Shown: positions 6,841 through 64,000, counted from the first letter of the stretch. The stretch: 64,000 nt of DNA from Clostridia bacterium (GCA_030529995.1 JAUMVT010000007.1:4170-68169); one strand, 5' to 3'. The notes: generated by a model from the letters alone, not told the origin. Numbers and translations are program-made.

Positions 6841-6865
6841 TTATTGATCGTGATGATCATGGCTT

Positions 6866-35527: not shown

Positions 35528-35550
35528 CATGCAAGGAGGAGACAAACATC

Positions 35551-40041: not shown

Positions 40042-40051
40042 GTACTTGTGA

Positions 40052-40078
40052 TGAAATCGTTACCGAAAACGTTACCGA
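40052..40078 (+). promoter_or_regulatory. Tandem cre/LacI-type operator half-repeats just downstream of the promoter
   Basis: TGAAATCGTTACCGA followed by AAACGTTACCGA. The same unit recurs at 46375-46402. Confidence 0.5.
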
Positions 40079-40101
40079 CACTGGCGCATAGGGAGGCGGC
40101 C

Positions 40102-41121: not shown

Positions 41122-41172
41122 TCATCCGCACAGGGCGAAACCTGTGGGAGAGATAAAAAGGAGGAAACCAGA

Positions 41173-42393: not shown

Positions 42394-42415
42394 TGAAACC
42401 TCAGTAAAACCTTCC

Positions 42416-42453
42416 GCCGCCCTGCCTGCCGGACTAACCAGCGGCAGGGCGGC
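42416..42453 (+). other. GC-rich intercistronic stem-loop after the binding-protein gene
   Basis: GCCGCCCTGCC / GGCAGGGCGGC perfect 11-bp stem followed by TTCTCTT. May act as a partial terminator or mRNA stabiliser. Confidence 0.5.
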
Positions 42454-42495
42454 TTCTCTTGCAGGGAAAACCAACCACGAGGGAGCGGGTATACA

Positions 42496-44807: not shown

Positions 44808-44839
44808 TCGGTTGACGCAACAAGAAGGAGGCGGGTGCT

Positions 44840-46345: not shown

Positions 46346-46374
46346 CATCCCCCCGCCATTCTTTGAGACATGAA

Positions 46375-46402
46375 TGAAAACGTTACCGATAACGATACCG
46401 AT
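46375..46402 (+). promoter_or_regulatory. Second copy of the tandem operator-like repeat, upstream of malQ-glgP
   Basis: TGAAAACGTTACCGA followed by TAACGATACCGAT. Confidence 0.5.
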
Positions 46403-46434
46403 TAAGGAAAGTCATGATGAAAGGAGAAATGCTT

Positions 46435-47913: not shown

Positions 47914-50276
47914 TGATGAACGCCAAGGAACTGATCCGCCGGGGAGAAACCCTGCTGATGACCCGTGACCATGTGATGCTGGAGCAGGCAACGGCCGTGC
48001 AGCTTCATGACGCTCTGGCTTCTGCTGCCATGGAGGCATTAACGCCTACTTGGGTGAAGTGTGAGCAGAAGCGGCAGGGAAAGCGGCAGGCCTATTATCT
48101 GTCTGCCGAATATCTGGTGGGTCGCATGGTGTACAACAATCTGTTCTGCCTGGGTCTGCTGGAGGATACGAAAAAGCTGCTGGCAGAGCGGCATGTGGAT
48201 CTTGCCTGCCTTGAGGATATAGAGGACGACGCTTTCGGCAACGGCGGCCTGGGACGGCTGGCAGCCTGCTTCCTGGACAGTGCGGTAACCCATCAGGTGC
48301 CCCTGACCGGCTACGGCCTTCGATATCGTTACGGCCTGTTTAAGCAAAGCTTTGTGAACGGCAGGCAGCATGAAGAACCGGATGACTGGGCCAAGTGGGG
48401 AGATCCGTGGAGCATTCGCCGAGACGATCTTGCCGTAACGGTGGAAATGAAGACAGGCAATGTGCTGGCTGTGCCCTATGATATGCCCATCATCGGCTAT
48501 GGCGCAAAGAACATCGGCACCCTGCGCCTGTGGCAGTGCGAAAGCCTTCACGAAATTGATTTCCCTCTGTTTAATCAGCAGGAGTATGCCAAAGCTGCCG
48601 GGGACAAGAACAGGGCTGAGGACATTACCAAGTTCCTGTACCCCAATGATTCGAAGAAGGAAGGCAAGCAGCTGCGGGTGAAGCAGCAGTATGTGCTGGT
48701 GTCTGCCTCTCTGCAGGACTTGCTGCGCAGCTACAAGGCACGCCACGGCAGTGACTACGCTTTCTTCGCCAAGGAGCATGCGGCACAGCTGAACGATACC
48801 CATCCCGTGATGGCGATTCCCGAGCTGATTCGCCTGCTGGGGAAAGACGGCGTGGACTTTGAGACTGCCTTCGCCATTGCCCGGGAAACCTTTGCCTACA
48901 CCAATCATACGGTGATGCAGGAAGCACTGGAAAAGTGGGACTTGCCCCTGCTGGCCTCCGTTTGCCCGGAATTGGTGAAGGTCATCCGGCAGATTGATGT
49001 CCGCTTCCGCAAGGAAATGAAGGCAGGCGGTCATGAAGTGAAGGCGACCCGCTGTATCCTGTGGCCGAACCCGTGGAATACCAAGGTGACCCAGGTACAT
49101 ATGGCGCAGCTGGCCGTGTATGCCACCCATGCAACCAACGGTGTGGCGGCGATTCATTCCAAAATTCTGAAGAAGGACGTATTTGCGGACTGGTATGCCC
49201 TGTATCCGGAACGGTTCCAAAACAAGACCAACGGCATTACCCAGCGCCGCTGGCTGGGACTGTGCAATCCTGAACTGACCGCTCTGCTGAAGGAGAAGCT
49301 GGGCAACGAGGAATTCCTGACGGATCTGGACGAGCTGGCCAAGCTGAAGCCCATGATCGATGATGACCTGTGCAAAGCCTTTATGCAGGTGAAGCAGGAG
49401 AAGAAGCGTCAGCTGGCGGAGGAGATTCAGCGGAAAGAGGGCGTGACCCTGGATCCTGGCATGATCTTTGACGTGCAGGTGAAGCGGCTCCATGAATACA
49501 AGCGGCAGCTGATGAACGCTTTGTCCATTCTGGCAATCTACTACCAGCTGAAGGATGGCACGCTGAAGGATTTTACGCCCACCGCCTTCATCTTCGGTGC
49601 AAAGGCAGCCCCCGGATATGACCGGGCGAAGGCCATCATTCACCTGATCAACATGATTGCGGACAAGGTGAATGCCGATCCGGAAACCAATCAGAAGCTT
49701 CGTGCCGTGTTTGTGCAGAATTACAACTGCTCCTATGCGGAGAAGATCATCCCTGCTGCGGACATCAGCGAACAGATTTCTCCCGCCGGCACGGAGGCCA
49801 GCGGCACCGGCAACATGAAGCTGATGCTGAACGGTGCTGTGACCCTGGGCACCTTTGACGGCGCCAACATTGAAATTGTTGAGCAGGCAGGGGAAGAGAA
49901 TAACTACATCTTCGGCGCAACGGTGGACGAAATCAACGCCATGAAGGCAACCTATGACCCGAAGAAGCTCTATCAAGCGGATCCTCTGCTGCGCAAGGCG
50001 GTGGACAGCCTGATTGACGGCACCTTCCCCGATGACGACGGTATGCTGAAGGAACTGCACACCGCTCTGCTGGAAGGCGCAAGCTGGCACAAGCCGGATC
50101 ATTACTTCCTGCTGAAGGATTTCCGCAGTTATCTGGATGCGAAGCTGCGGGCTAACCGGGATTACCGTGACCACATGGCCTTTGCAAGAAAGTGCCTGAT
50201 GAACGTGGCCGGTGCAGGAAAGTTCTCTTCCGACAGAACCATCAAGGAATATGCAAAGGAGATTTGGAAGGTCTGA
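47910..50276 (+). CDS. glgP: Alpha-glucan (glycogen/maltodextrin) phosphorylase
   Basis: 4-nt overlap with malQ. PLP-lysine motif EASGTGNMKLMLNGA and the GNGGLGRLAACFLDS motif. Confidence 0.95.
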   Translation: MMMNAKELIRRGETLLMTRDHVMLEQATAVQLHDALASAAMEALTPTWVKCEQKRQGKRQAYYLSAEYLVGRMVYNNLFCLGLLEDTKKLLAERHVDLACLEDIEDDAFGNGGLGRLAACFLDSAVTHQVPLTGYGLRYRYGLFKQSFVNGRQHEEPDDWAKWGDPWSIRRDDLAVTVEMKTGNVLAVPYDMPIIGYGAKNIGTLRLWQCESLHEIDFPLFNQQEYAKAAGDKNRAEDITKFLYPNDSKKEGKQLRVKQQYVLVSASLQDLLRSYKARHGSDYAFFAKEHAAQLNDTHPVMAIPELIRLLGKDGVDFETAFAIARETFAYTNHTVMQEALEKWDLPLLASVCPELVKVIRQIDVRFRKEMKAGGHEVKATRCILWPNPWNTKVTQVHMAQLAVYATHATNGVAAIHSKILKKDVFADWYALYPERFQNKTNGITQRRWLGLCNPELTALLKEKLGNEEFLTDLDELAKLKPMIDDDLCKAFMQVKQEKKRQLAEEIQRKEGVTLDPGMIFDVQVKRLHEYKRQLMNALSILAIYYQLKDGTLKDFTPTAFIFGAKAAPGYDRAKAIIHLINMIADKVNADPETNQKLRAVFVQNYNCSYAEKIIPAADISEQISPAGTEASGTGNMKLMLNGAVTLGTFDGANIEIVEQAGEENNYIFGATVDEINAMKATYDPKKLYQADPLLRKAVDSLIDGTFPDDDGMLKELHTALLEGASWHKPDHYFLLKDFRSYLDAKLRANRDYRDHMAFARKCLMNVAGAGKFSSDRTIKEYAKEIWKV

Positions 50277-50328
50277 ACCTTACGCGGCTCGGAACCTTTA
50301 TCCAATCCTATCTTTACATGAAATGCAA

Positions 50329-50380
50329 GACCCGGCGGTTGAACGTGCTTGTATGCCGTTCCATCGCCGGGTCGTTTTCT
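50329..50380. terminator. Stem-loop between convergent glgP and ogt
   Basis: GACCCGGCG ... CGCCGGGTC 9-bp stem with a 27-nt structured loop, followed by GTTTTCT. Confidence 0.45.
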
Positions 50381-50391
50381 GTGAATGAGGG

Positions 50392-50928
50392 TCATGGTTC
50401 ACGCTTCTGCTTGGGCAAGCGCAGCCTACTGACATCGATGCCTTCCAGCTTCAGCAAGGCTATTTTTCGCTCAATACCGCCTGCATAGCCGGTGAGATTG
50501 CCTCCTGCACCCATGACACGGTGGCAGGGAATGATCAGGGAAATGGGATTATGCCCAACGGCGCCGCCAACTGCCTGCGCAGACATGGGGGAGCTGCTCA
50601 TTCGCCTGGACACTTCCACGGCAATCGCCCCATAGGTCATGGTTTGCCCGTAAGGAATGGCCGACATGATATCACATACCATCCGGCGAAAAGGAGAACC
50701 CGTAACCTGCAGCGGGGGAGTAAAGTCGGGCACGCTACCGGAAAAGTAGCCATCCAACCAACGCTTGGTTTCGGAGAAAATAGGAGTGTCAGCCGTCCGG
50801 CATGTGCCCGTAAATCCTTCCATGAAATGCGTTTGGCCGGAGAACCAAAGCCCCAGCAGTGCATGCTCGTTGCAGATCATGGTGATGAGGCCGAGAGGGG
50901 ATTCGTAAGAAGCGGTGAAGCAGGGCAT
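50392..50928 (-). CDS. ogt: Methylated-DNA--protein-cysteine methyltransferase
   Basis: Active site IPCHRV. Start trimmed to MPCFTASYESPLG behind GAAAGGAG. Confidence 0.9.
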   Translation of the reverse strand: MPCFTASYESPLGLITMICNEHALLGLWFSGQTHFMEGFTGTCRTADTPIFSETKRWLDGYFSGSVPDFTPPLQVTGSPFRRMVCDIMSAIPYGQTMTYGAIAVEVSRRMSSSPMSAQAVGGAVGHNPISLIIPCHRVMGAGGNLTGYAGGIERKIALLKLEGIDVSRLRLPKQKREP

Positions 50929-51028
50929 GGAAGCACTCCTTTCAGGGGGATAAGGGGAGTATAGCACAAAAAAGAGAAGCAGAAGAGGCATTCTGCAAGC
51001 AAATGTTGTAAAAGGTTACGTGTATGTG

Positions 51029-51168
51029 ACATGAACGACGAGCAAACGCATCAAGCTAAGTTATTGTCGAAAACTGATTTTGCGAGTGTTCGTATTCGTA
51101 ACAATGGCGAAAAAACAAGCAAAATGCTAGATTTATCGATGCAGATGAGAGGATTACATGAACGATGA
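51029..51168 (+). repeat. Two copies of the 13-mer ACATGAACGAYGA, 127 nt apart, in an AT-rich intergenic region
   Basis: Copies lie at 51029-51041 and 51156-51168. Each contains an ATG opening a short ORF that begins MNDE (45 and 35 codons). Confidence 0.8.
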
Positions 51169-51223
51169 AGGAAGGACATGTTCCCATAACGAAAACAGAA
51201 GTGTGACATTTTCGTTACTTTTC

Positions 51224-51237
51224 AAAAAAAAAAAAAA
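51224..51237 (+). repeat. Homopolymeric A14 tract
   Basis: Fourteen consecutive A residues, 20 nt upstream of the predicted -35 of the vWA/tubulin-like cluster. Confidence 0.95.
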
Positions 51238-51256
51238 GATTCATGTAATTTTTCTA

Positions 51257-51285
51257 TTGAACTGACAGCGGTTCTCTGCTATAAT
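51257..51285 (+). promoter_or_regulatory. Candidate sigma70-type promoter of the five-gene cluster
   Basis: TTGAAC, 17 nt, TATAAT. It lies 111 nt upstream of ATG 51396. Confidence 0.5.
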
Positions 51286-51395
51286 CAAAAGGAATGATTT
51301 CCTTTTCTAGTCCAATGTTCTACGGCACGCAAAATGCAGGAGAAACTCCTCAGACGGCAGCGCCGCAAGAAGCACTTGAAGGAGGCAGCCCTGTC

Positions 51396-54300
51396 ATGAA
51401 GAGAATCCTGTCTGCTATGTTGATGCTATGCGTCTTTCTTGCCTGCCTGACGGGAACCGTTGAGGCGGACACCATGGCTGATACATCTGCCACATCCGGC
51501 ATTGATGTTGTGATTGTGCTGGATATGACGGCATCCATGGATGGCAGCAACAACCCGGATGCAAGGACGAAAAATGATGAGTACAATTATCGTCTGGATG
51601 CGGCAGCCATGCTGATCAGCATGCTGGACATGGATTCTTCCCGTGTGGCAGTGGTGCCTTTTGCATGGGAACCTTTTGAAGATCAGATTATTGACCTGAC
51701 GCCTGTGCCGGACAGCACCTCCCGCAACGAGCTTGTGCAGCAGGTGTATGCCCTGAAGGACTACGGCACGAAGCCGAACACCAATATCGGTGCTGCGCTG
51801 ATGCGGGCTAACCAGATCCTTCAGCAGCGGGATGATGTGGGGAATGAGCCCATGATCATGCTGCTGACGGACGGCAACAATGATATGTCCGGCTCAAAAC
51901 AGACAGTGACCAATTCTCTCCGGTGGGATAGCGCTAACCAAACCATCTACAGCGAAGGAACGCAGAAATATACCACGGATACTGCCAATGCTGTGACCAA
52001 AGAGGCCGTGAACTGCGCCTACACTTTGCAGTACCCGATTTATGCCATTGCTTTGAATGAAGATCCTGATACGGCAGCGGCAGGCGGTCTCTCCTTGCGT
52101 GCTATTTCCGAAGGCAGCGGACTGAGAGACGGCTGCCGGATGGTATCGAAAAACGATGCATCCAGCTTGCCTGAGTATTTCGCAGACTTCTTGGCAGCAC
52201 GGATTGGCTCCAGCGTGCAGCTCTCTGCTTCTCCCGAAAAGGTAGAGGGAATGGAGAACACTTATGAGGTTACCATCCCTGTGCTGAATCAGTCGGTGAT
52301 GGAAATCAATATCATCCTTCCTGTTCACTTGGCAAATGCGAAGGAAACCAGCAAGTGGGGTAAGGGCATTGACGCGTCCAGCATCAAAATGTATGATTCC
52401 GATGGTACACTGCTGTCCAACGCATCGGACATTCAGATTCTGCGCAATGACAACGCTCACTTTGCCATGGTGAAGGTACGCAATCCTCAGCCTAACGGAC
52501 TGTGGACCCTTCGATTCACCAGCAATACGGATCCTAATAACATCTCTTTCAACATTCTCTACAACTACAACATCAAGCTTCAGTCTTCCGTGGAGTCCAC
52601 AACCACTCGGGTGGATGGCTTGTATAAGTCTGACAAGCTGGAGATCACTTCCTGGTTTACCAATGCGGACGGATCCAAGGCATCTGACAGCAACCTTTAT
52701 GCGGATCACCGGGGAGAAGCAGGCTTCGAAGATTGGATGACCATTCAGGGCAGCTGGCAGCTGTATCAGGAACTGGATGGAAAGCGTACGCTTCAGCGAG
52801 AAGGCACCTTGCTTTCCGATGAGACGCTTCGCTGCTTCCATGCGGATGTGGATCTGAGCGAAACGATTCTGCAGGATGGCAATTATGTACTGGTGGTAAG
52901 CGCACAGGGCGCTGGCTTGAACCGCAGCGTGGAACAGAACTTTGTTCTTCTGAACCATGCACCGGAGGCCAAGGACTATGATATAACGCTTAACGTGAAT
53001 TCCACAGATGACACGGAAGACGCCGCGGCTACCTGGACGGTGGAAGGCACCTCCGGCGTGCTGCCTGTGAAGGTTCAGGATTTGGTGAAGGATGCTGACG
53101 GGGATCAGCTGAGCTATACCCTGAAGGCGCTGAACAATGCGGGCAGCATTGTTACCCTGGAAATGGATGAGAGCACCGGCACTTTCACATACCATACAGC
53201 CCAGGACGGCGATAAGCTGGCCAGCGGCGATGCAGTGTATACTTTGTACTATGATGACGGCTGCACAAACGGTGCAGGCAGCATGAACATAACGTTCCAT
53301 GTAGTGTCCGGCGTGGATGAAATGCAGAAGGCTTACACTCCTGTTGTGACAGTAAACGGTACGCCCGGCAATACGCCTGATACTTGGCTAAAGAATACGG
53401 ATCTCACCTTGTCTGTTCAGTTGAAGGACGTCAACGGCGGCTACGCTGATGCGGAGGTTCTGAACCGTTTGTCCGTCCGGGTGGATGCGGTGAATACCAC
53501 GGCGGATGAGAAGGTTTCCTTCACGGAAAATTCTCAGCAGGAAGACAGCCGAGACTTTACCATCAATACTGGCAACAAGGCTGCGACCATTGATGTGACG
53601 GTTACGATTGGCCTTTTCGATCCCATGAAGCTGACGGTGAACATCCCCAACCAAGAAGCACCGGTGGCAGCTGCATCCGGGGCGGCAACCATCTATTGCA
53701 ACGGCACTGATGTACCGTCCTTCCTGAAGGGACTCATTGGCGAAGAAACGTCTCAGGATGCGGCTGAGCTCAATGTGGATATCGAAGCGGAAAAGCTGTT
53801 TACGGACGCCGACAATGATGTTTTGACCTATGCGGCACCGACCTTTGCCCTGCCCGAAAGCGGTGCGGCGGCAGATGCGGCCATGATCACGGCTGAGAAG
53901 ACGGGGGAGAATGCCTACCACATCCTTGTGGACAGCAGTTCGACAGGCATATTCCATGACACCTTTACCGTCACCATGAACATTGTGGCCACGGATGGCG
54001 ACGGCGTGACTTCCGCCGTGCCTTATACCAAGACCTTGACCGTGGTGGATCTGCATAACAAGTTCCTGACCCTTGCGGTGATTGTTGGTATTGCACTGGC
54101 GGTACTGATTGTACTGATCCTGATCATCCATCAGCTGCGGAAGCCTCGCTTTGCAAGACTTGCTGTTTCGGTCACGGAAGCACCCAGTATGTATGAAACT
54201 TCTCGTCTGGAATTGCCCAACAGCAAGGCACCTGTGAATGCAATGAGGCTCGGCGTGAGCGGGGAGAATTGCGGCGTAAGCAACACACAGCTCCTGAATG

Positions 54301-54698
54301 TGCTGCTGAAGCCTAACCGTGCTTCGAAGACGATTGATGTGGTTTGCAAGAAGATTGAGCTGGATTACGAAATCACCATGAGTGAGAAAGCTTTGAAGGC
54401 AGGGAAAAAGGTACAGTGGCACTTGGATGGTGAATTGAAGATTCGCCGGATGAACGAGGAAAGTGCCCTTGTCTTGAAACTTTGCGAGAAGCAGGAAGAT
54501 AGTGGCATGACGGCCTTCATGGATAATGCAGGCGGAGCAGATGATTGGACAAGTGATGATCAAGGCTTCGAAAATGCAGCACCGAAGAAGAGCAAGCGTG
54601 TGAGCCGCTCCACGAGGAAGAATGCTAAGCAGGATACGCACGAGAATAATGTTGATGACTGGAACAATGGAGACGACAATGGCGGTTATGCGTTCTAA
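51396..54698 (+). CDS. Single-pass surface protein: signal peptide, vWA domain, Ig/cadherin-like repeats, TM helix and a roughly 190-aa cytoplasmic tail
   Basis: Start at MKRILSAMLMLCVFLACL behind GAAGGAGG. The MIDAS-type motif DMTAS in VVIVLDMTASMDG (51522-51536) and MIMLLTDGNN are present. DADGDQLSY and DADNDVLTY are cadherin-like motifs. TM helix FLTLAVIVGIALAVLIVLILII at about 54063-54131. Confidence 0.8.
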   Translation: MKRILSAMLMLCVFLACLTGTVEADTMADTSATSGIDVVIVLDMTASMDGSNNPDARTKNDEYNYRLDAAAMLISMLDMDSSRVAVVPFAWEPFEDQIIDLTPVPDSTSRNELVQQVYALKDYGTKPNTNIGAALMRANQILQQRDDVGNEPMIMLLTDGNNDMSGSKQTVTNSLRWDSANQTIYSEGTQKYTTDTANAVTKEAVNCAYTLQYPIYAIALNEDPDTAAAGGLSLRAISEGSGLRDGCRMVSKNDASSLPEYFADFLAARIGSSVQLSASPEKVEGMENTYEVTIPVLNQSVMEINIILPVHLANAKETSKWGKGIDASSIKMYDSDGTLLSNASDIQILRNDNAHFAMVKVRNPQPNGLWTLRFTSNTDPNNISFNILYNYNIKLQSSVESTTTRVDGLYKSDKLEITSWFTNADGSKASDSNLYADHRGEAGFEDWMTIQGSWQLYQELDGKRTLQREGTLLSDETLRCFHADVDLSETILQDGNYVLVVSAQGAGLNRSVEQNFVLLNHAPEAKDYDITLNVNSTDDTEDAAATWTVEGTSGVLPVKVQDLVKDADGDQLSYTLKALNNAGSIVTLEMDESTGTFTYHTAQDGDKLASGDAVYTLYYDDGCTNGAGSMNITFHVVSGVDEMQKAYTPVVTVNGTPGNTPDTWLKNTDLTLSVQLKDVNGGYADAEVLNRLSVRVDAVNTTADEKVSFTENSQQEDSRDFTINTGNKAATIDVTVTIGLFDPMKLTVNIPNQEAPVAAASGAATIYCNGTDVPSFLKGLIGEETSQDAAELNVDIEAEKLFTDADNDVLTYAAPTFALPESGAAADAAMITAEKTGENAYHILVDSSSTGIFHDTFTVTMNIVATDGDGVTSAVPYTKTLTVVDLHNKFLTLAVIVGIALAVLIVLILIIHQLRKPRFARLAVSVTEAPSMYETSRLELPNSKAPVNAMRLGVSGENCGVSNTQLLNVLLKPNRASKTIDVVCKKIELDYEITMSEKALKAGKKVQWHLDGELKIRRMNEESALVLKLCEKQEDSGMTAFMDNAGGADDWTSDDQGFENAAPKKSKRVSRSTRKNAKQDTHENNVDDWNNGDDNGGYAF

Positions 54699-54728
54699 AT
54701 AATCTTGAATTGAAAAGGGGATCGTGTC

Positions 54729-57700
54729 ATGGCTGAGCAGAAGTTCGATATTTCCATTGAGCGGGTTGAAAAGATTCCTGTTCCGTTGCTGGTGATTGGA
54801 TTGGGCGGCACAGGCTGCGATGCGCTGAAGGCAGTGAAGCGTACCTTTGCCGAGCGGTATGTGCTGCCGGTGAATGCGGATGGTCAGACCCAGGCAGCAC
54901 CGCCGAAAACGGCCTATCTGGGTTTTGACAGCCTGAGTGAACGACCGGACGGCTTGGAAATCAACGAGTATGTGGATATTTCCATTGCCGGCATGGATAA
55001 GATCCTGACCAATCAGGATACGCTGCTCCAGCCCTATGAGCGGTCATGGGTCAACCGTGACCTTCGCCATGAGGCTGCCGGCCTTGGCATGGGCACTGTC
55101 CGTCAGGCTGCCCGACTGGCTCTGTGCCGAAATTACGACAAGGTAACCAATGCACTGAGAGGCGCATTGAACAATATTGTCTCCGTTGCCGCGGGTGCTC
55201 CCGGCAGCCCGGTGAATCGTATTGAGATCGTGATCCTGACAGGCATCAGCGGCGGTACGGGTTCCGGCACCTTCTTGGACATGGCACAGATTGTGCGCTA
55301 CGTTGGTTCGCAGGTGTCCCAGTTGCCGGTGCGTATTACAGGCTATCTTGTCATGCCTGATGTTTCGCTGGAGAGAGTCAAGGGTGCTTCCGGCATGGAG
55401 GATCCCATCAAGCACAATGCGTATGCTGCCCTGAAGGAACTGGATTTCTGGATGCGCGTGAAGGACCATGAAGTTCCTTACACCATGCAGTACAATGCGA
55501 CAACCAGCATTACCTGGAGCGAGAAGCCTTTTGACAGCTGCCTGCTGATGAGCTCTACCAACACGAAGGGCCTTCCTTATAAGGATGGCTATGAAGCCGT
55601 CATGAATACCATCGCCGAAAACCTGATGCACTACATGGCGCATGAGGATGGCGTTACCACCCAGTATTCCTATCGTCAGTATGAGGACAACCTGGGTGCC
55701 ATCCAAATCAGTAAGCGGTATCCGGCGTTCTATGGCTACCGGGCAATCGGTGCCTTCACCAAGCGGATTCCGAAGAAAGCTTTGCTGTACTACGAAGGAA
55801 AACGCCTGCTGTCTACCTTTATTCCCCTGCGGGACAGCAAGGGCGTTTTACAGCCTGACCGCCGCATGTTCACGGATGGACAGGGAGAACATCGGGCACA
55901 GCAGATTATCGGCTCCGGCGGACAGATGATGCAGGATTTCCGCACTCGCATTTGCCGGTTGCCTTCGTATTGCTCTACCGACTTGTCTGATAAGATTAAG
56001 GTCTCTGAAGTTCAGAATATGAATCCGCCAGCCCATAACCGCTGGCACCAGCAGCGGAATACGGATTGCGCTCCTGCGGCTTTGAAAGCATCGGAAAAGT
56101 ATCTGAACGAGGCATGGAATCGGTTTGTTCAGTTTGCGAATACTGTTATTACGGATCCGGAACAGGGACCCTTTGCACTGCGGCTTTATCTGGATGATGT
56201 ATCCGGCCTGCTTTCCGAAATGAATAAAACCTTGGAAACGTGGACAAGCTATAGAAATAAGTTCCGTAAGGAAATTAGCCAGTGGGAGGAGACTTGCAAG
56301 AGCAGCTTCGGGAATTTCTGCCATCCGCCGCTTCTGGGCAGAAAGACCGCGCTGGAAACCTATGACCATGCTCTTCGTTCTCTTTACACGGCTGTGTGGA
56401 ACAGTGAATTCATGGAGTGCTATGTGCCTGCGCTGGAAAAGCTGATTCTTCGGGTGAAAGAATATCTGGCCGATGGCTTGAAGCCTATGTGCAACACCAT
56501 CGAGAAGCTGGAAGAAGAATTCAACACCATCGAATCCACGGATACTACCCTGGTGCAGGATATCTATCAGCTGGATGATGTGAAGGGAAAGATTGATGAA
56601 GTCTTTACTGATGCAAACGCTAATAACCGGCTGGCCGTTTCCTTCCTGCAGGAAGTAACGACCATCTCCATGCTGAATGCGCCCAATGTGGACAGTAAGT
56701 CCTCCGGCGTTATGTTCCTGTGTCGCAATGCAGGGCTTGAAAAGCTCTGCGGCATGCTGCAGCAAAAATTGACGGAAACCTACGGGGATGTGAACGATCA
56801 GTCTCTGGACTCCATCATGGTAAGCAATGTTGGAGAGGACATCGCCAAGCAGCAGCAGTGGATGAATCGCCTGGCCACCGAGGTACTGGACAGTGCAGTG
56901 CCTATGTTTATGCAGGATGCGGTCTTCCAAAGTGAGGACAAGGCACCCTACAGCTATATGTCCATTCCTTACAATGCGAAAAAGCACATGGAGTACATCA
57001 GCGAGGCGTTTAAGACCCATGATCCTGCGGTAGAGCCGAAGGAAAGCTCCCTGAAGGATCACATTTATTGCTTGAACACCTGGGATAAGCTGCCTCTGTA
57101 TCGCTATGGCAAAATGGAAGAACTGCGGACGACCTATGATGCCGACCTGAATAAAGACGGCGCATCGAAGGGCATGCACTTGGTGTGCAACGGTGATCCT
57201 AACGCCAGCTACCAGTCGGACTGGACAAAGCTTCCTTCGCCCAAGCCTTATTTCCTCTTCCCGGGAACCGGCACGCTCAGCGAGCAAGCCCAGTATGAGC
57301 ACGTGAAAGATCTGGTGCGGGATGGTATGGCATGCGGCATGGTAGAAGTTTCGACGGATAACCCCGTCGTTTCGGTAAAGGTTCACCTGCAGTATGCGCC
57401 GGGTACGAACGCTTTCAAGACCTCTGAAACCATGCGTCAGGATCGGGCGGTGATTGTGGCTGAGAAGAATCCTGCCACAGGGGCACCTTACACGAAGGCG
57501 GAAATCGGAGAAAAGCTGGCGGCTTACCTGAACTCCGGAAAAACAGTCTATTTGGAGGAGAAGGAAGTTCGGCCATCGCAGCTGGCCAATGTACTTGGCT
57601 TAACCAATGAGCCCTGCGATCCCTTTGATGTTACTGTTCAGGCGGATATTGCGGCAATGGCAAAGGCCAAGGAAAACCATGCAAAGCTGTGCGTGGCGAT

Positions 57701-58310
57701 GGCTGAGGCAATTATTTACCGCCGCCCGGACATGATGCGTGCGATTGAAATGCAGCTGCCCGCTGTGAAGGAGATCCGCAAGGAAGCGGAGGAAGCGGCA
57801 AGAATTGCGGCTGCATGGAAAAAACGCAAGGAGTTTGCTCCGGAGGCAGCAGAGCTGTTTATTTTCCTGAACGATGTAATTTCCTTGGGCGGTTCCGGCT
57901 ATCGCTACAAGTACAAGGGCGAAAAGTACGATATGGTGAGTGAAAACCTGCTTGCTGACGACCTGAAGGACGTTTCTGACTATGTGAAGGTCATTGCTTT
58001 CCTGGCCGAAGTTCCTGAAAGCAACAGCACGAAGGCAACCTTGACGCGGATGCTGAAGGATGCCAAGGATGCCTATGACACGGCGGTAGATGGGGAGACT
58101 GTAACGGCTGAAGAAATGCAGGATCTGCTGGATGCTGCCAATGATCTGAAGGACGAAGCGGATGAGGAAGCAGTGAGGTTGGAGCATGAAACGCACAGCA
58201 ACCCCAGCGAGGCAGATGCGCTGACGTATCAGATGGAACTGATGCAGGCATTCAGTAAAGCAATCGAAAAGAACATAAGAAGCTTTAAGAAAATTCAAAA
58301 GGGTCTGTAA
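54729..58310 (+). CDS. Giant tubulin/FtsZ-signature GTPase-like protein (Tubulin_2 / FtsZ-like family candidate), 1193 aa
   Basis: AAGGGG SD. PLLVIGLGGTGCDAL (T1-like, nt 54798-54815) and ILTGISGGTGSGTFLD (T4 tubulin signature, nt 55251-55271) lie about 150 residues apart. The C-terminal region is long and mostly helical. Confidence 0.7.
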   Translation: MAEQKFDISIERVEKIPVPLLVIGLGGTGCDALKAVKRTFAERYVLPVNADGQTQAAPPKTAYLGFDSLSERPDGLEINEYVDISIAGMDKILTNQDTLLQPYERSWVNRDLRHEAAGLGMGTVRQAARLALCRNYDKVTNALRGALNNIVSVAAGAPGSPVNRIEIVILTGISGGTGSGTFLDMAQIVRYVGSQVSQLPVRITGYLVMPDVSLERVKGASGMEDPIKHNAYAALKELDFWMRVKDHEVPYTMQYNATTSITWSEKPFDSCLLMSSTNTKGLPYKDGYEAVMNTIAENLMHYMAHEDGVTTQYSYRQYEDNLGAIQISKRYPAFYGYRAIGAFTKRIPKKALLYYEGKRLLSTFIPLRDSKGVLQPDRRMFTDGQGEHRAQQIIGSGGQMMQDFRTRICRLPSYCSTDLSDKIKVSEVQNMNPPAHNRWHQQRNTDCAPAALKASEKYLNEAWNRFVQFANTVITDPEQGPFALRLYLDDVSGLLSEMNKTLETWTSYRNKFRKEISQWEETCKSSFGNFCHPPLLGRKTALETYDHALRSLYTAVWNSEFMECYVPALEKLILRVKEYLADGLKPMCNTIEKLEEEFNTIESTDTTLVQDIYQLDDVKGKIDEVFTDANANNRLAVSFLQEVTTISMLNAPNVDSKSSGVMFLCRNAGLEKLCGMLQQKLTETYGDVNDQSLDSIMVSNVGEDIAKQQQWMNRLATEVLDSAVPMFMQDAVFQSEDKAPYSYMSIPYNAKKHMEYISEAFKTHDPAVEPKESSLKDHIYCLNTWDKLPLYRYGKMEELRTTYDADLNKDGASKGMHLVCNGDPNASYQSDWTKLPSPKPYFLFPGTGTLSEQAQYEHVKDLVRDGMACGMVEVSTDNPVVSVKVHLQYAPGTNAFKTSETMRQDRAVIVAEKNPATGAPYTKAEIGEKLAAYLNSGKTVYLEEKEVRPSQLANVLGLTNEPCDPFDVTVQADIAAMAKAKENHAKLCVAMAEAIIYRRPDMMRAIEMQLPAVKEIRKEAEEAARIAAAWKKRKEFAPEAAELFIFLNDVISLGGSGYRYKYKGEKYDMVSENLLADDLKDVSDYVKVIAFLAEVPESNSTKATLTRMLKDAKDAYDTAVDGETVTAEEMQDLLDAANDLKDEADEEAVRLEHETHSNPSEADALTYQMELMQAFSKAIEKNIRSFKKIQKGL

Positions 58311-58415
58311 GCCTGCGTAGATTTTTATAGAAAAGCGCAGGGTGGTGCCTTCAGGACAGGTCGCAGGTGCGGTCTGCCCTGAAGGTCTATCACCATATAG
58401 GAGGAACGAGGGACA

Positions 58416-60950
58416 ATGACGATCAGCACAACGGCTGCAAATATTGTTGTTCTTTATGGCGATGAAGCCGCAAAGCATTTTGTGGATTTGGTGAAGCAGT
58501 GGGATAAACTGCTCAATGCAGATGGATGGGCATCCCTGTATTTTTTGATTGTATCCAGCCATGACCAGGAGTACAATCAACTGACCCAAGAGGAATGGAA
58601 TCGTGTTAGTCCGATAACCACCTATCTTAACATTAATGAGCAGCCGCTATCAACAAATGAGTACGCTGAAATTGCGTGGAGGTTGCCGAATGCGGGCAGC
58701 CCTAAGCTCCATCTGATTTGCGCAGCCGGACGTGAGCACTGTACCTATGATTGGCTGGAAAGCTTCACGCAGAATGTGCTGAAGGACGATGTCCATTTCA
58801 CCCAGTTCTTGCTCTATTATGTGCTGGGGAGAGACAGCCTGCCGGATGAAAAGAATGGCATGCATCGTGTGCTGCAAACTATTCAGGGGCAGGGGCATCA
58901 TGACCATGTGTTCCTCATTGGTGATACGGATGACGGCGGACAGAAAGTGAACAGTGATGCCATGTGGAATGCACTGTATCTGTCTGCCGTAATGAACTGT
59001 GCCGATAAATTGCACCTGAGCACAGAAACCTATTCGGTGGGCTATTCCGTGCTGAATGCGAATGGCAGCGAATTGGAAAACCTTCGCTTAGCCGCTTCGT
59101 GCCTTGCCGTGCAGGAACGCTTGCAGGAGGGAGAACTGTCGTCAGCTGAAGCGGTACCTGCTTTGCTGCCATCGGGCGTGGCAAGCGTTTCGGCACTGGA
59201 AGAGTGGCTAAAGAAAACAGTGCGTGAGTCTGTTCGCATTGCGAAAAGCGATTTCGGTAATGCGTGGATCACCATTCGCATGGATGCAGACCTGGATGAA
59301 ACGGAAACGTGCAAGCGCCTGAAACGGTTCGTTGACATGAATTATTGTCAATCGGCAACGATGGCTGAACGGGCGGAAAGCTTTGCACAGCAGGTGAAAA
59401 ACGAAGTTGTGGACCGGTTGTGCCGCACACCGAAAGCGGCGATTATGCCTGCGTCTGCAGCCGGCGACATTGCGTCTGCATTGGAACGCATGAGCAAGGA
59501 CGATGTACCGGCTATTCGGTGCACCTTCGGAAAGAAGCCTTTCCTCAAAACAGCAGGCAGGATGTCTCAATACGTGGAGGAAAACAAAGAAGCGGCTTTT
59601 AAGGCAGCAGGAACGCATGCAATGCAGCTGAATATGCAGACATATGCAAATGCTCTTGCCCAGGCATATCGGTCAATTGAAGAGTGGCTCAACAGAATGC
59701 ATTCCGGGAAAGTACCTGAAATGGACATCGTTGCTTATTTGCAGCGCAGAATGAGAAAGCTTGAAAAACCGGAGTCGGGGAATACGGACTATCTTCGGAC
59801 AAAGAAATATCCCAAGTATTGGAAGGAGCTGACGAATCTCCACCCTGCATTGCAGGAAATTACAGAGAACATGGAAAGCGAAGCCCAATACTTTGATGAA
59901 AACGGAAATTATGTGGAAGCAGGATGGGAAAGCCTGCTTGCCAGCGCACAGCAGGTGCTGAGAGACCAACTGCCGGGACGTATGAGCCTAAGATTCTTCG
60001 ATGTGCTGCACGCGGAGTTTGACGATGAAAAGCTGACGGAGTTCTTTGCGGATTACCTGAAGCCTGGTCGGCGCATGTATTACAATATGAGGGCGATTGT
60101 AGGCAATGCGCAGTCTTTCTATCTGGTGGATGAAGATCTGGCGAGTGCCTGGAAAAATGCGCCGGAAGGCCTTTTTGAAGTGCAGACGGATAACGCTGAG
60201 AATCTGACCCTGTATCCGATTGAGGGAAGCGGGGAGCAATCCTGGATCCTCGACAGCGGAGAAGCCTATTTTCATGGCGCAAGCATGGGCAGACTTTCCA
60301 AGCTGGCAGACCGGGAACAGGGTCAGTCTCCCGTGACAAGCCAGAGGAAAATCAGTAACCTTGCTTCTTCTCAGAAAGCACACTCGGCTCCTGCGGAACG
60401 CCATGAAGAAACGGATACGCATGGACTAAAACTGCAGCCCAATGCTCAGAATCATTACATGCTTTCCTGGGATTGGCAAGGCAATGATCAGCTTGCAAAA
60501 ATTACAATTACCCAGCTTGGTGAGCAAGTGGGATTTGATGTTGTTGATGTGAAGACGTTCAAGAAAAACAACGGGCAATTTGACGTGACGGCAAAAATGA
60601 TGGGTGGGAAGCCGATTCCTTACGGAGAATTGACAGTTACCATTTACTCAGGAGAGGGGAAGACCCCCTACATTGACCGTGCAACAGTGATGGGAAGATG
60701 TGAACAGGTCAACTATAGCATAAAGGGTAGCAAATTAGAAATGAAACAAGCTGCGCCCGGTGTGCTGAATCGTGTTGCATTGCGGATTACCAATAAGGAA
60801 GGCAAGTGGCTGTACTATCCTTTGTATGCAGGCAATGAGGATCATCCGTATACCTTTGAAAGACTGAATTTGGATGATGCTAAAGTTGTTCAGGCACCGA
60901 CAGAGCAAACGGACAGCAAAAAGGTACCGATCTTTATTCAACAAGTTTAA
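58416..60950 (+). CDS. Hypothetical 844-aa protein, possibly a nucleotide-loop-degenerate paralogue of the upstream tubulin-like protein
   Basis: AGGAGG SD. NIVVLYGDEAAKHF and HVFLIGDTDDGGQKV sit at the same positions and spacing as the GGTG loops of the neighbouring gene. The C-terminal domain is beta-rich. Confidence 0.7.
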   Translation: MTISTTAANIVVLYGDEAAKHFVDLVKQWDKLLNADGWASLYFLIVSSHDQEYNQLTQEEWNRVSPITTYLNINEQPLSTNEYAEIAWRLPNAGSPKLHLICAAGREHCTYDWLESFTQNVLKDDVHFTQFLLYYVLGRDSLPDEKNGMHRVLQTIQGQGHHDHVFLIGDTDDGGQKVNSDAMWNALYLSAVMNCADKLHLSTETYSVGYSVLNANGSELENLRLAASCLAVQERLQEGELSSAEAVPALLPSGVASVSALEEWLKKTVRESVRIAKSDFGNAWITIRMDADLDETETCKRLKRFVDMNYCQSATMAERAESFAQQVKNEVVDRLCRTPKAAIMPASAAGDIASALERMSKDDVPAIRCTFGKKPFLKTAGRMSQYVEENKEAAFKAAGTHAMQLNMQTYANALAQAYRSIEEWLNRMHSGKVPEMDIVAYLQRRMRKLEKPESGNTDYLRTKKYPKYWKELTNLHPALQEITENMESEAQYFDENGNYVEAGWESLLASAQQVLRDQLPGRMSLRFFDVLHAEFDDEKLTEFFADYLKPGRRMYYNMRAIVGNAQSFYLVDEDLASAWKNAPEGLFEVQTDNAENLTLYPIEGSGEQSWILDSGEAYFHGASMGRLSKLADREQGQSPVTSQRKISNLASSQKAHSAPAERHEETDTHGLKLQPNAQNHYMLSWDWQGNDQLAKITITQLGEQVGFDVVDVKTFKKNNGQFDVTAKMMGGKPIPYGELTVTIYSGEGKTPYIDRATVMGRCEQVNYSIKGSKLEMKQAAPGVLNRVALRITNKEGKWLYYPLYAGNEDHPYTFERLNLDDAKVVQAPTEQTDSKKVPIFIQQV

Positions 60951-60977
60951 CGGATTGAGATAGGGAGGAATGAAATA

Positions 60978-62471
60978 ATGGAAGTAAGCCATGTATGCCC
61001 TTATTGCGGTAAAGAAATTGACGTTGAAGAGATTCTCTTTTGGACGAAGAGCAAGCAGCAGTTTGATGATCCGCTTCGTGCTGGTTTTTTGCGCAGTCAT
61101 GGTGTGACAACCGGTGAAAAATTTGCCCGAGTGTATTTTAAGCCCTGTTTTGACGGAGAACGTAAAAACGTCATTAAGGTGGACTGCAATGATTATTATC
61201 CCACCATGCTGGAGGATGCGCGCTCCAATGGCCTTTCTCCGAAGCAGCTTGAAGGTAAGGACGATGCCTTTGGCGATGGTGACGATGATACTTATGACGA
61301 TGAATACAGGACGCAGCGATCCAATAGTAAAAAGAAAACAACGGAAGAGAAGTGCAGAATTGTTCAAAGAGCGTGCCCCCATTGCCATTGCGAGCTTCCT
61401 CAGGGATTTGGCGTACTGCCGGTTCATCATGTGGCCATGTTTGGCATTCGTGCCGCAGGAAAGACGGCCTATTTGGTGAACCTGTTTCAGCAGGTGAACG
61501 CCCAATTGAGCAATAATAATTTAGGCTCCGTGATGCTGGCAGAGGACAGCAAGCTTTTTCTGCAGCCGCTGATTGAAACGTACGAGGACAGCGGTAATAC
61601 AAAGGCAACGACGGCGGATAACGGTCTGCTGCCTATTGTGTGTCAGTACAAAAATGGCGGAAAAGAATCTTTTATCGTTTTTTATGACATTGCAGGAGAA
61701 GCTGTAACACAGAGCGATTATATGGCAAACCATAAAGGTATTCAGAACTGTGAAGCGCTTTTGATGATGATTGATCCTAACATGCTTACTTCAGGCGCAT
61801 TTGCAGCTGCATGGGAGAATGCGCATGGAGCTGGCAGCGAAGATATGATATATCCTACGATTGATGCATTCCTGAATGAAGCAGGGGTGATTTGTCAAGA
61901 TTTTGCCGACCATCTGAAGTCCATTGTTTGCGTGATTACCAAAATGGATATGGTACTGGAAAAGGATTCTGACCTGTTTGGCGGAGCAAACAGCAAACTG
62001 GAAATTACGACGGATATCGGCAAAAAGCATCTGAACCATGTTAACCTTCGCGTCCTAGCAGAAGTACGGAATAATTTGAATACTTTCCTGCAAAAGCAGT
62101 ATAGTGTGAACCTGAGCAAGAAGATTCATGATACCTTCGGTCAGGATCGTCAGGTGTATCTGCTGGGTGTTTCTACCTCTACGCGGGTGCCATCAGCCCC
62201 CGGCAATTCGAAAATCTGCTTTGAGCCTAAGAATTCTGCTAACGATCCCAAGCATCGAATCATTGAACCTTTCCTGGTGATTGCAATGACCTTTGGCCTC
62301 GTCAGCGGTGTGGATGATAAAGGCGATGTGAAGTGGTTCACAGGCAATGTGAAGCTGCCTGAGCGTGAATCGACTGCTGAGACCCCGCAGAAGCAGGAAA
62401 AGAAGGAAGCCGGACAAGCAACGAAGAAAAAGAAAGGCTTTTTCAGCAGGCTCTTTGGAGGCAGAAAATGA
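60978..62471 (+). CDS. Zinc-ribbon-containing P-loop GTPase with a C-terminal amphipathic membrane-targeting helix
   Basis: GGGAGG SD. CPYC (C7/C10) and CPHCHC (C133/C136/C138). G1 GIRAAGKT (61443-61466), G3 DIAGE (61686-61700) and G4 TKMD (61938-61949). Tail KKKKGFFSRLFGGRK. Confidence 0.75.
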   Translation: MEVSHVCPYCGKEIDVEEILFWTKSKQQFDDPLRAGFLRSHGVTTGEKFARVYFKPCFDGERKNVIKVDCNDYYPTMLEDARSNGLSPKQLEGKDDAFGDGDDDTYDDEYRTQRSNSKKKTTEEKCRIVQRACPHCHCELPQGFGVLPVHHVAMFGIRAAGKTAYLVNLFQQVNAQLSNNNLGSVMLAEDSKLFLQPLIETYEDSGNTKATTADNGLLPIVCQYKNGGKESFIVFYDIAGEAVTQSDYMANHKGIQNCEALLMMIDPNMLTSGAFAAAWENAHGAGSEDMIYPTIDAFLNEAGVICQDFADHLKSIVCVITKMDMVLEKDSDLFGGANSKLEITTDIGKKHLNHVNLRVLAEVRNNLNTFLQKQYSVNLSKKIHDTFGQDRQVYLLGVSTSTRVPSAPGNSKICFEPKNSANDPKHRIIEPFLVIAMTFGLVSGVDDKGDVKWFTGNVKLPERESTAETPQKQEKKEAGQATKKKKGFFSRLFGGRK

Positions 62472-64000
62472 ATATCGATGTGCAGTATTACATTGGCGGC
62501 GATACGCCAAAGTCAGGCTTCGGTGTCATTGGCAGATCGGATAACTTTCATGAAGACGCTGATACGCTGTGGATCAACCATGGCAGTGAAGTGGAGGATC
62601 GTTCCCGTATTGAACCGACTGATTACAGACAGCCGGATAGCCTTAGCAGACTCTGTCATGTATGGGAGTATCAAACGGATTCCTTTGGCGCGCCTGCCTT
62701 CATCTCTTCTTATGTGGGAATCAGCAATCGAGGCCGATTTCATGGCTTTGCGGAATACATTATGCCGGAGCTGGATCAACCGGTTTCTCAAATTGCCGCG
62801 GCAGGGCAGATGATCGATGCAGCTGCCCGGCTGAATACGCTGGATTTTTACGAGTTCTGGGAAACGGAAAGCACGCCGATTCCGCCTCGGGATTATGTCC
62901 TTGCCATTCGGGATGTGTTGCCTGCTGCCTGGATGAAGAACGGGAAAATCGATGAGACGTGGCTGCTGACGCTGGTGAGCCGGTACTGGGAAAGCGCATC
63001 CCGGCGAGCGTTCTCCCAAGGATCCTTTCGGCCGGTGCTTGTATGCCTGGGAGAATTTGCGGAAGAAAAGCAGGAAGATATCGATTGTACAATTGAAAAG
63101 GCGAGAGCATTCTATGCAACTGAGATTGCGCCCAAACTGCCGGCGCAGGTGCAGAACATTACTTCTTTTGCTGCCGGTGTGGATTGCCGGGATGTAATTG
63201 ATCGCTTGAATTCTGCACTGCTTTTCTGCATTGATGAAAACCTGAACGTCGAAGATGCACTGCAGCTGGATGAACCGAAGGCGTTGGGGCAGTATAAGCT
63301 TTGCCCGGCAGAAATGAACTTCATCCAGGATGTGGCAAACGGGAAAACACCAACGCTGGTAGCTGAGGTGATGAAGCAGTATCAAGCATTGCACCCTGAT
63401 GCAAACTTGGATATGCATCAAATTCCGTTCATGTCGGATTATCGAGTCTGGTATCAATTATATTGTGTAGAACATCTGATCCAAGATGGCTCGGCGTTCT
63501 TGCAGCAAGCAAATCTGGATATAGAAGAAAATGAAGAGGATAAGATTCGCATTCGTCCGGCACGCTCCTACTTTCTGCTGATGAATGAGCTGCGGGACGT
63601 GTTCCTTGATCATAGCAAGGAGGTCAAGAAGGCAGAGGTTGACGTTCTGCTGAAGGGGTGCGAGGAAAAGCTTCTTCAAATGATGCTGGAAAGCATGCAG
63701 GCTCAAGATGCAAAGCCCTTTATTGTGCGCCCTTCGGAAATGCGCATGTGGCATGCGAAGATTCTTGCGACCCCTTATGAGGAATTGGCTTCGCTGATGA
63801 TGCAGCTGCTTACCATGGATCAGAAGCTGCGGGCGGAAATGCTGAGCTTCATTCGGGCTTTGCCAAGCACGAGAATGAGCGAAACCACGGATGAGCGCAA
63901 TGCGGCGCTGATGAGATCTCTGCTGGAAAATTGTATTCGTCCGCTGATTGAGCACGAACTCGGAAAAGAAAAAATTGCCGATGAATCTCCGCTGCGGAAC
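62468..64000 (+). CDS. Hypothetical protein, fifth gene of the cluster, with its 3' end outside the window (more than 511 codons)
   Basis: Not in the supplied ORF track. ATGA start/stop overlap with the GTPase gene, with GGAGG 6 nt upstream. I read the frame stop-free to 64000: MNIDVQYYIGGDTPKSGFGVIGRSDNFHEDADTLWINHG... The composition looks protein-like, unlike the antisense ORFs. Confidence 0.7.
   Translation, partial: MNIDVQYYIGGDTPKSGFGVIGRSDNFHEDADTLWINHGSEVEDRSRIEPTDYRQPDSLSRLCHVWEYQTDSFGAPAFISSYVGISNRGRFHGFAEYIMPELDQPVSQIAAAGQMIDAAARLNTLDFYEFWETESTPIPPRDYVLAIRDVLPAAWMKNGKIDETWLLTLVSRYWESASRRAFSQGSFRPVLVCLGEFAEEKQEDIDCTIEKARAFYATEIAPKLPAQVQNITSFAAGVDCRDVIDRLNSALLFCIDENLNVEDALQLDEPKALGQYKLCPAEMNFIQDVANGKTPTLVAEVMKQYQALHPDANLDMHQIPFMSDYRVWYQLYCVEHLIQDGSAFLQQANLDIEENEEDKIRIRPARSYFLLMNELRDVFLDHSKEVKKAEVDVLLKGCEEKLLQMMLESMQAQDAKPFIVRPSEMRMWHAKILATPYEELASLMMQLLTMDQKLRAEMLSFIRALPSTRMSETTDERNAALMRSLLENCIRPLIEHELGKEKIADESPLRN

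Follow-up and report, generated by a model that had tools for sequence, protein, structure and literature searches.

The DNA analysed here is a stretch of 64,000 nucleotides (nt) from a Clostridia bacterium (GCA_030529995.1, JAUMVT010000007.1:4170-68169), referred to at its full length as the window, the 3′ end of which holds the first four genes, and part of the fifth, of an operon with seven genes, designated g1 to g7. It represents a Clostridial branch, and a divergent one, of a type of operon described computationally in 2010 and again in 2020, and the combination of genes is not new. The window ends inside g5 and the source contig ends ~140 nt further on, with the consequence that g6 and g7 are not visible for this organism and are described below from relatives. 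The features of the locus, with lengths in amino acids (aa), are the following.

51257..51285, + strand: promoter-like sequence TTGAAC-17-TATAAT with a TG extension, ~110 nt 5′ of the g1 start
51396..54698, + strand: g1, vWA surface protein of 1100 aa (from Pfam VWA, hydropathy and the starts used in relatives)
54729..58310, + strand: g2, FtsZl1/Tubulin_2 protein of 1193 aa (Pfam PF13809)
58416..60950, + strand: g3, cytoplasmic protein of 844 aa (from its position directly after g2 and an AlphaFold2 model)
60978..62471, + strand: g4, DO-GTPase (Double-GTPase 2 family) of 497 aa (Pfam PF19993)
62468..64000, running beyond the window, + strand: g5, 5′ part, 511 of ~1662 codons (from translation and relatives)

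The five open reading frames (ORFs) all lie on the + strand and are separated by gaps of 30, 105, 27 and -4 nt, exactly as reported in a first-pass annotation of this DNA, which had regarded them as a five-gene module; relatives of the locus show seven genes. The same annotation had assigned a GGAGG-type Shine-Dalgarno (SD) sequence to each gene, which is the case for g1, g3, g4 and g5, while that of g2 is a weaker AAGGGG. The promoter-like sequence it had placed ahead of the module has the highest sigma-70-like score between positions 50200 and 64000, with 10 of 12 matches, although sites of this type are no commoner in the region than in shuffled sequence; judged by position only, it may serve as the promoter of g1. 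A run of 14 A residues at 51226-51239 lies just 5′ of its -35 hexamer, within the ~400-nt gap between g1 and the divergently oriented ogt gene (50392-50991, - strand). Transcription of the module as one unit is plausible, and no terminator-like site in the region falls inside the intergenic gaps of the module; neither tandem DNA repeats nor Rfam elements were found in it. The ratio of non-synonymous to synonymous substitution rates (dN/dS), determined against three relatives, is 0.06-0.20 for all module genes, which represents purifying selection, most intense on g1, g2 and g6, and which establishes that all of the genes are real, including the fifth ORF, which the first-pass annotation had called unlisted. 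The GC content is 0.47-0.53 across the module (50001-64000) as compared to ~0.56 in the 50 kb upstream, a difference compatible with horizontal acquisition.

Relatives L001-L004 were reached through g4 proteins of 77% and 81% identity, and the close relatives L005 and L006 came from a genome scan; homologues of g4 at 76-90% identity are located on longer contigs. The order in close relatives, in every case where the contig extends far enough, is a vWA protein of 1100 aa, a Tubulin_2 protein of 1194 aa, g3 of 845 aa, a GTPase of 496 aa, g5 of 1662-1668 aa, a protein of 164 aa with four transmembrane (TM) helices, namely g6, and g7 of 1007-1017 aa, after which an unrelated flavoprotein gene follows. 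Twenty-one loci were present in 185,579 species genomes, all of these being metagenome-assembled genomes of Clostridia from gut or rumen, with Christensenellales, Limiplasma, Aristaeellaceae and Oscillospiraceae represented. BLASTP of all ORFs revealed that the order g1 to g7 is kept in about 20 Clostridia loci, down to ~30% g4 identity, thereby bearing out the idea that the gene set is co-conserved elsewhere with its order. Loci L016, L024 and L025 carry two true Tubulin_2 genes ahead of g3, and in L010-L014, L022 and others g7 is directly followed by a gene for a protein of 400-465 aa consisting of three TM helices, an extracellular vWA domain (DKSGSM) and two further TM helices, a gene that is absent at this position in close relatives. 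The g3 gene always follows g2, and both are absent from L020, where nothing but the vWA-TM protein is kept beside the GTPase and g5, while L028 retains only g5 and a GTPase fused to leucine-rich repeats (LRR). The gene content of L020 and L028 identifies the GTPase-g5 pair as the constant core, with tubulin-g3 and g6-g7 acting as cassettes.

Some further variation was observed among these loci. In the distant relatives L014 (19621-21120), L012 (20064-21470) and L022 (20038-21468), the multi-TM vWA gene has a ninth gene after it on the same strand, its product being a protein with one TM helix and a length of at least ~470-500 aa which in L014 has a transglutaminase-like core (7.8e-7) and which could represent an enzymatic component of an extended operon. 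The operon of L005 (CAVGBO010000071.1) is 86-97% protein-identical to the Clostridia operon analysed here, yet it is found in a bin named Phocaeicola dorei, most likely owing to a binning error. In this locus g2 is split into two ORFs (1052 + 145 aa; 3727-7328), and in L006 g4 is split into two overlapping ORFs (179 + 452 aa; 10001-11495), which reflects errors of assembly or else frameshifts that inactivate the gene in some strains. Identity between the window and L005 is 97% for g2, 88% for g3 and 86% for g4, while that between the window and L001 is 92% for g1 and 77% for g4, with a higher synonymous divergence (dS) for g4, and such swings from gene to gene suggest that recombination may have taken place between operon variants.

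Both signature Pfam models of the previously described operons match here, the first of them in g2, which matches Tubulin_2 (PF13809) at 1e-46 with 160 bits over 352 of the 356 profile positions. The predicted tubulin-like GTP-binding domain occupies the N-terminal part (aa 21-362), and the long C-terminal part after it is mostly helical; in this part a crude scan found a single segment (aa 578-625) with heptad periodicity above that of shuffled sequences. The T1 loop GLGGTG (aa 24-29, 54798-54815) and the T4 tubulin signature SGGTGSG (aa 174-180, 55248-55268) are invariant in an alignment of 24 orthologues and paralogues, in which 126 positions are at least 95% conserved over the full 1193 aa. 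The dN/dS of the gene is ~0.09, and the tubulin/FtsZ signature noticed in the first-pass annotation is confirmed. The protein thus resembles canonical FtsZ, tubulin, TubZ and PhuZ in its T1 and T4 nucleotide-binding loops, but differs from canonical FtsZ and tubulin in being three times longer and in lying below the threshold of the canonical Pfam Tubulin model (PF00091; 13.6 bits against a cut-off of 33, with only aa 167-191, around the T4 loop, aligned), and its polymerisation is conjectural. A phmmer search with g2 returned no sequence match in the PDB. Locus L026, on plasmid pMESIL01 of Allomeiothermus silvanus (NC_014213.1, 7363-13764), is a remotely related FtsZl1 operon that lacks a DO-GTPase and has a setting resembling a defence island: its triad of vWA, Tubulin_2 and hypothetical genes is located between two copies of an IS701-family transposase and adjoins brxL (for the Lon-like protease of BREX), a gene with a WYL domain, and genes of the RecQ family and others related to helicases.

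The second signature model, DO-GTPase2 (PF19993), is matched by g4 at 2e-7 with 31.4 bits against a cut-off of 27, only just above the threshold, which indicates that the Clostridial branch is divergent. The protein contains two CxxC-type knuckles, CPYC (aa 7-10, 60996-61007) and CPHC(H)C (aa 133-138, with CPHC at 61374-61385), the matches to the Pfam models Zn_Ribbon_1 and DUF7575 being weak, together with a Walker A motif GIRAAGKT (61443-61466), a Walker B motif DIAGE bearing the Glu of the family (aa 237-241, 61686-61700), a TKMD motif (61938-61949) and a basic amphipathic C-terminus, KKKKGFFSRLFGGRK (62424-62468). Across 22 diverse aligned homologues, both Cys knuckles, GxRAAGKT, DIAGE and TKxD are kept, with D237 invariant and E241 present in at least 90%, and the basic amphipathic C-terminus (KKKGFFSRLFGGRK) is likewise conserved, in agreement with the earlier description of g4 as a zinc-ribbon P-loop GTPase with a putative membrane-binding tail. 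Homologues of g4 number 141, and PF19993 is precomputed for most of the 120 listed; at least four among the matches listed (P0066, P0074, P0075 and P0078) are fused to TIR_2. In L027 (GCA_024712465.1, JAMQYI012401943.1, 10001-11878) a g4 homologue with an N-terminal TIR_2 domain occurs solo, with neither a tubulin nor a g5-like neighbour, in a conjugative-element context comprising genes for a TraG/TrwB-type coupling protein, an IS605 OrfB/TnpB protein and a PP2C protein. A lookup of the exact g4 sequence gave no record, no g4 relative was found on plasmids in the plasmid collection, and the g4 profile found no solved structure by sequence in the PDB.

The product of g3 matches no Pfam family. 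An AlphaFold2 (AF2) model, built on an alignment of seven sequences and with a pLDDT of 80-89 for the first ~130 residues and 57 overall, has a Rossmann-like alpha/beta N-domain (aa 1-200, six-fold beta-alpha), a helical middle and a C-terminal beta-sandwich (aa ~670-760), and its best Foldseek matches in the PDB are the NAD-binding Rossmann domains of glucose-6-phosphate dehydrogenase (E 2.9e-4). Conserved among g3 orthologues are N9, G15, W29, W38, F43 and the motif YS(L/V)GYSxLNA (59031-59060). The first-pass annotation had taken g3 for a degenerate paralogue of the tubulin-like g2, a claim that is unsupported: BLASTP detected no similarity between the two proteins, an hhalign comparison of a 24-sequence g2 profile with a 22-sequence g3 profile gave a best probability of 4.6%, outside the tubulin domain, no FtsZ or tubulin is among the top 50 Foldseek matches of the AF2 model in the PDB, and the sequence GDTDDGG, which looks like a T4 loop, is not kept among g3 orthologues. 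A very remote kinship may nevertheless exist, as the AF2 model derives from seven sequences and is poor beyond the N-domain.

The start of g1 was placed at the ATG preceded by the GGAGG SD, giving 1100 aa; starting from the first in-frame ATG, at 51294, the protein would measure 1134 aa, but this codon is located only 9 nt 3′ of the -10 box, and gene calls in relatives use the Met of the 1100-aa form. The protein matches VWA (1.6e-9) and VWA_2 (1.5e-8) at aa 37-203 and carries DMTAS, a DxTxS variant of the metal ion-dependent adhesion site (MIDAS) motif, at 51522-51536, while Pfam gave no match to a YtkA domain. Hydropathy indicates a type-I layout with a signal peptide (aa 1-25), one TM helix (aa 886-917) and a cytoplasmic tail of 183 aa, just as the first-pass annotation had it when it described a vWA surface anchor with a cytoplasmic tail, and the ectodomain also holds beta-rich cadherin/Ig-like repeats; the dN/dS of the gene is 0.08. 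In relatives, g7 similarly specifies a signal peptide and a beta-rich Ig-repeat ectodomain, then a single TM helix with a tail in the cytoplasm, and its orthologues match Big_9 (1.9e-7) and, weakly, Cadherin_4. The possibility that g7 is a second vWA protein was rejected, as Pfam VWA is absent from all 10 g7 orthologues searched, in which fn3 is also without a match. The last repeat, TM helix and juxtamembrane region of g7 share homology with the corresponding parts of g1 (by hhalign, probability 99.2%, E 2.5e-19). By identity g7 diverges fastest of all module genes, yet its dN/dS is only 0.13-0.15. Neither g7 nor the four-TM protein g6 has a Pfam, NCBIfam or PADLOC family of its own, and the g1/g7 pair, with its common TM-plus-tail module, is one place where novelty remains.

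The start of g5 overlaps the end of g4 by 4 nt (ATGA) and the two genes are translationally coupled. The source contig, of 68,311 bp, carries a partial g5 protein of 558 aa, which is 100% identical to g5 and was the only match that a word-indexed homologue search gave for the g5 profile. A conserved N-terminal module of ~345 aa, beta-rich, then alpha/beta and then helical, is followed in relatives, beyond the end of the window, by an acidic helical extension of ~1150 aa with repeats of ~89 aa. The gene has a dN/dS of 0.11-0.20, and only 39 relatives were found by phmmer among 1.84 billion representatives, mainly sharing residues 1-345. An AF2 model of the N-module (~500 aa), built from a 30-sequence alignment, reached a pLDDT of 89 and a pTM of 0.91, and the residues invariant in the alignment (G11, R47, E67, R90, W174, L224-P225, S233, A250 and D324) probably mark a functional surface. 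No significant fold match to this model was present in the PDB or BFVD, the best being TagF (E 0.037, probability 0.6, TM-score 0.24-0.33), and the likeness to this regulator of the type VI secretion system was treated as not significant; the idea of TagF as a DENN-like protein found no confirmation in the papers searched. Similarly, rows for TAL effectors in the PDB search proved to be repeat artefacts with zero passing stretches, the g5 profile found no solved structure by sequence in the PDB, and PADLOC-DB v2 returned one insignificant match (PDC-M07A, E 0.0045, 14 bits). As set out by Kaur, Burroughs, Iyer and Aravind (eLife 2020; PMC7159879), DO-GTPases have an obligate partner, GAP1, with N2, M and C domains, which is encoded directly downstream and carries an extension at the C-terminus described as highly polar. 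The g5 gene occupies this position in every locus, directly 3′ of the GTPase gene, and is kept with it in the minimal loci L020 and L028; the simplest reading would be that g5 is a GAP1 that has diverged beyond the reach of HMMER.

FtsZl1, now Pfam Tubulin_2, was defined by Makarova and Koonin (Biol Direct 2010; PMC2875224) as a protein with an FtsZ-like domain at the N-terminus with a T4 loop of the GGGTG(S/T)G type, an extended coiled coil and an alpha-helical C-terminal domain, in which the T6-H7 elements and the C-terminal domain responsible for canonical protofilament contacts are not identifiable. Its operon partners are a vWA protein, often secreted or membrane-bound and with an intact MIDAS, and a diverged P-loop GTPase with TxKD, and such operons were predicted to act in membrane remodelling or vesicle biogenesis (PMC2875224). 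The present operon conforms to this description in that g2 has the FtsZ-like N-domain and helical region, g1 is a vWA protein with a MIDAS-type motif, signal peptide and TM helix, g4 is a diverged P-loop GTPase with both Walker motifs, A and B, and with TKMD for TxKD, and lineage-specific membrane proteins are present. It differs in the absence of OmpA and protein-kinase genes, and the FtsZl1 paper defines none of the GTPase partner, g3, g6 and g7.

The DO-GTPases of Kaur et al. are TRAFAC GTPases with a Walker B Glu and N-terminal Zn ribbons (PMC7159879). Their Firmicutes GAP1-N2 theme comprises two tubulin-plus-coiled-coil genes, rapidly evolving proteins with fibronectin type III (FNIII) repeats and a pair of vWA proteins, one fused to YtkA and the other multi-TM with an extracellular vWA domain, and the systems were predicted to be thresholded, NTP-gated conflict systems whose tubulins assemble into multimeric effectors (PMC7159879). 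In the present operon, g4 corresponds to the Zn-knuckle TRAFAC GTPase with its Walker B Glu and DO-GTPase2 match, the large g5 is found directly 3′ of it with a polar helical C-terminal extension (seen in relatives), g2 is a tubulin-domain protein with a helical, perhaps coiled, C-terminal part and g1 an extracellular vWA membrane protein, while the TM-rich, membrane-proximal layout, the beta-sandwich repeat proteins and the Firmicutes host also agree. Two elements of the Firmicutes version are found in relatives only, namely the multi-TM extracellular vWA protein, the gene for which is missing in close relatives, and, in some loci, the second tubulin gene. The conserved four-TM g6 and the common TM-plus-tail module of g1 and g7 have no counterpart in those parts of the description that were compared. 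The tubulin-type GAP1-N2 DO-GTPase systems of 2020 and the FtsZl1-vWA-GTPase operons of 2010 are the same operons.

There is also a likeness to the MoxR-vWA 'ternary' systems (VMAP/iSTAND) covered in the same paper (PMC7159879), in which the switch, an NTPase, is combined with a vWA protein and with a third component, large and constant, that bears a variable sensor region, and L020, with its vWA-TM protein, GTPase and g5, has exactly this three-part form. Here a GTPase takes the place of the MoxR AAA+ ATPase as the switch, the vWA domain lies outside the cell, and neither an EAD/Death-like adaptor nor enzymatic effector domains are present. The first-pass annotation had not recognised the combination as a named system and had counted a match to a described set against its own proposal; the set matches the operons of PMC2875224 and PMC7159879, and has thus already been described. 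What the annotation had named as the nearest known relatives, the Tubulin_2/FtsZ-like families and the vWA-containing NTPase conflict systems, is indeed what the operon belongs to, and its two functional hypotheses, an outside-in GTP-dependent polymer and a defence or abortive-infection module, coincide with the two predictions published for such operons.

From its architecture, the operon is probably a tubulin-type DO-GTPase operon of the GAP1-N2 class, in which a membrane-tethered switch would gate tubulin-like assembly in a conflict setting. The type-I surface proteins g1, with its vWA domain and MIDAS-like motif, and g7 would sense an extracellular or envelope ligand, and their tails would signal to a switch consisting of the Zn-knuckle DO-GTPase g4, which its amphipathic C-terminus would tether to the membrane, and of the obligate partner g5. 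This g4-g5 switch would then gate the GTP-dependent assembly of g2 at the membrane, together with its companion g3, and the output would be membrane remodelling or damage, maybe through the four-TM protein g6. The most probable setting would be biological conflict, as a response to phage or another invader: the evidence leans this way through the TIR and LRR fusions of homologous GTPases, the mobile-element context of L027, the vWA-Tubulin_2 pair of L026 near brxL and between IS copies, the sparse distribution, the lower GC and the cassette modularity.

A number of observations weigh against this interpretation. Pfam GAP1-N, GAP1-M and GAP1-C models, compared by hmmscan with the window fragment of g5, 17 orthologues and 8 distant relatives, found no match, which sets g5 apart from the systems of Kaur et al.; likewise, the operon differs from their Firmicutes version in having one recognisable tubulin gene, g2, with g3 not detectably a tubulin, and in that fn3 and YtkA domains were not detected. 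PADLOC-DB v2 returned no match for g1-g4, relatives of g4 are absent from the viral contigs of IMG/VR, and there is neither an integrase nor another defence gene near the module in the window. The literature search turned up no paper on any component beyond the two computational ones, and no solved structure. Gene spacing is the sole basis for a single transcript. The synteny across several families of Clostridia, taken with the purifying selection, would also be compatible with a role in cell biology, towards which the housekeeping flanks of the module lean.

A possible, though rather unlikely, alternative is that the operon is a housekeeping membrane-remodelling or envelope machine and not an immune system, in which a GTPase-regulated FtsZl1 polymer would shape vesicles, septa or the placement of surface layer and adhesins, with g1 and g7 as anchors for cell-wall or cell-cell adhesion, in line with the reading of Makarova and Koonin. 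It is the published prediction for FtsZl1 operons (PMC2875224), and it accords with the chromosomal context, the stability of the seven-gene synteny over several families, the strong and uniform selection, the lack of PADLOC matches and of relatives in viral contigs, and the failure of Pfam to find an enzymatic 'toxic' effector domain in the operon, but it sits poorly with so sparse an occurrence (21 of 185,579 species genomes, and 39 representatives for g5), with a GC below that of the flanks, with cassettes that are lost and gained in L020 and L028, and with the TIR and LRR fusions, mobile-element contexts and defence-island-like L026 locus mentioned above. An adhesin or surface-protein export and anchoring apparatus, in which g1 and g7 would be cargo or adhesins that the cytoplasmic GTPases help to secrete or to position, by analogy with FlhF and the signal recognition particle (SRP), is extremely improbable: although the operon encodes a pair of very large surface proteins, in which vWA and Ig/cadherin-like repeats occur, together with a membrane-targeted GTPase and the small polytopic g6, g4 is a DO-GTPase2 and not an SRP/FlhF-like (SIMIBI) GTPase, g7 is missing from minimal loci that still have the GTPase-g5 pair, as is, in L028, any surface protein, and the ordinary signal peptides and stop-transfer TM anchors of g1 and g7 mean that no dedicated exporter is needed.

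It is also highly unlikely that the operon is a truly new, unnamed system, tied to published families only via the promiscuous vWA, tubulin and P-loop domains. Four of its genes (g3, g5, g6 and g7) belong to no family in Pfam, NCBIfam or PADLOC, and the small g5 family yields a confident model that has no counterpart fold in the PDB or BFVD, yet this view is already largely refuted by the two published descriptions and by matches that are specific, DO-GTPase2 being a family whose definition comes solely from these systems and Tubulin_2 being FtsZl1; moreover, gene order and architectures follow the Firmicutes description, including the multi-TM vWA protein of relatives, and the GTPase-g5 pair behaves like DO-GTPase-GAP1. 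A narrower claim to novelty, which we regard as doubtful, is that g5 is a distinct and, from its model, structurally new regulator and not a diverged GAP1, and the operon an outside-in device from receptor to cytoskeleton, in which two receptors with homologous tails would switch a membrane-bound GTPase and thereby cause a non-canonical tubulin to polymerise with g3 as a Rossmann-fold co-factor. If g5 is not GAP1, it is the other place where novelty remains.

Outside the module, the window holds housekeeping genes, among them ogt, a methionyl-tRNA synthetase gene with a T-box, TatD and genes for maltodextrin utilisation. The T-box leader (Rfam RF00230, 101 bits; 35307-35502) is situated directly 5′ of the methionyl-tRNA synthetase gene (35473-37539) and is ordinary, and the maltodextrin utilisation cluster (40048-50276) encodes a LacI regulator, an ATP-binding cassette (ABC) transporter, an alpha-amylase, a 4-alpha-glucanotransferase and a phosphorylase.

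FtsZl1/Tubulin_2 represents the most divergent branch of the tubulin-FtsZ superfamily, and DO-GTPase systems rank among the larger predicted 'conflict' systems. The locus and its relatives add to these a compact version with seven genes, strongly conserved in Clostridia of the gut and rumen, a division of the operon into core and accessory genes, and a confident model of the g5 N-module. Should the doubtful proposal of a receptor-to-cytoskeleton device be true, it would constitute a pathway in prokaryotes that has no characterised counterpart. While specialist expectations are left unchanged, the locus provides useful starting material for experimental work.

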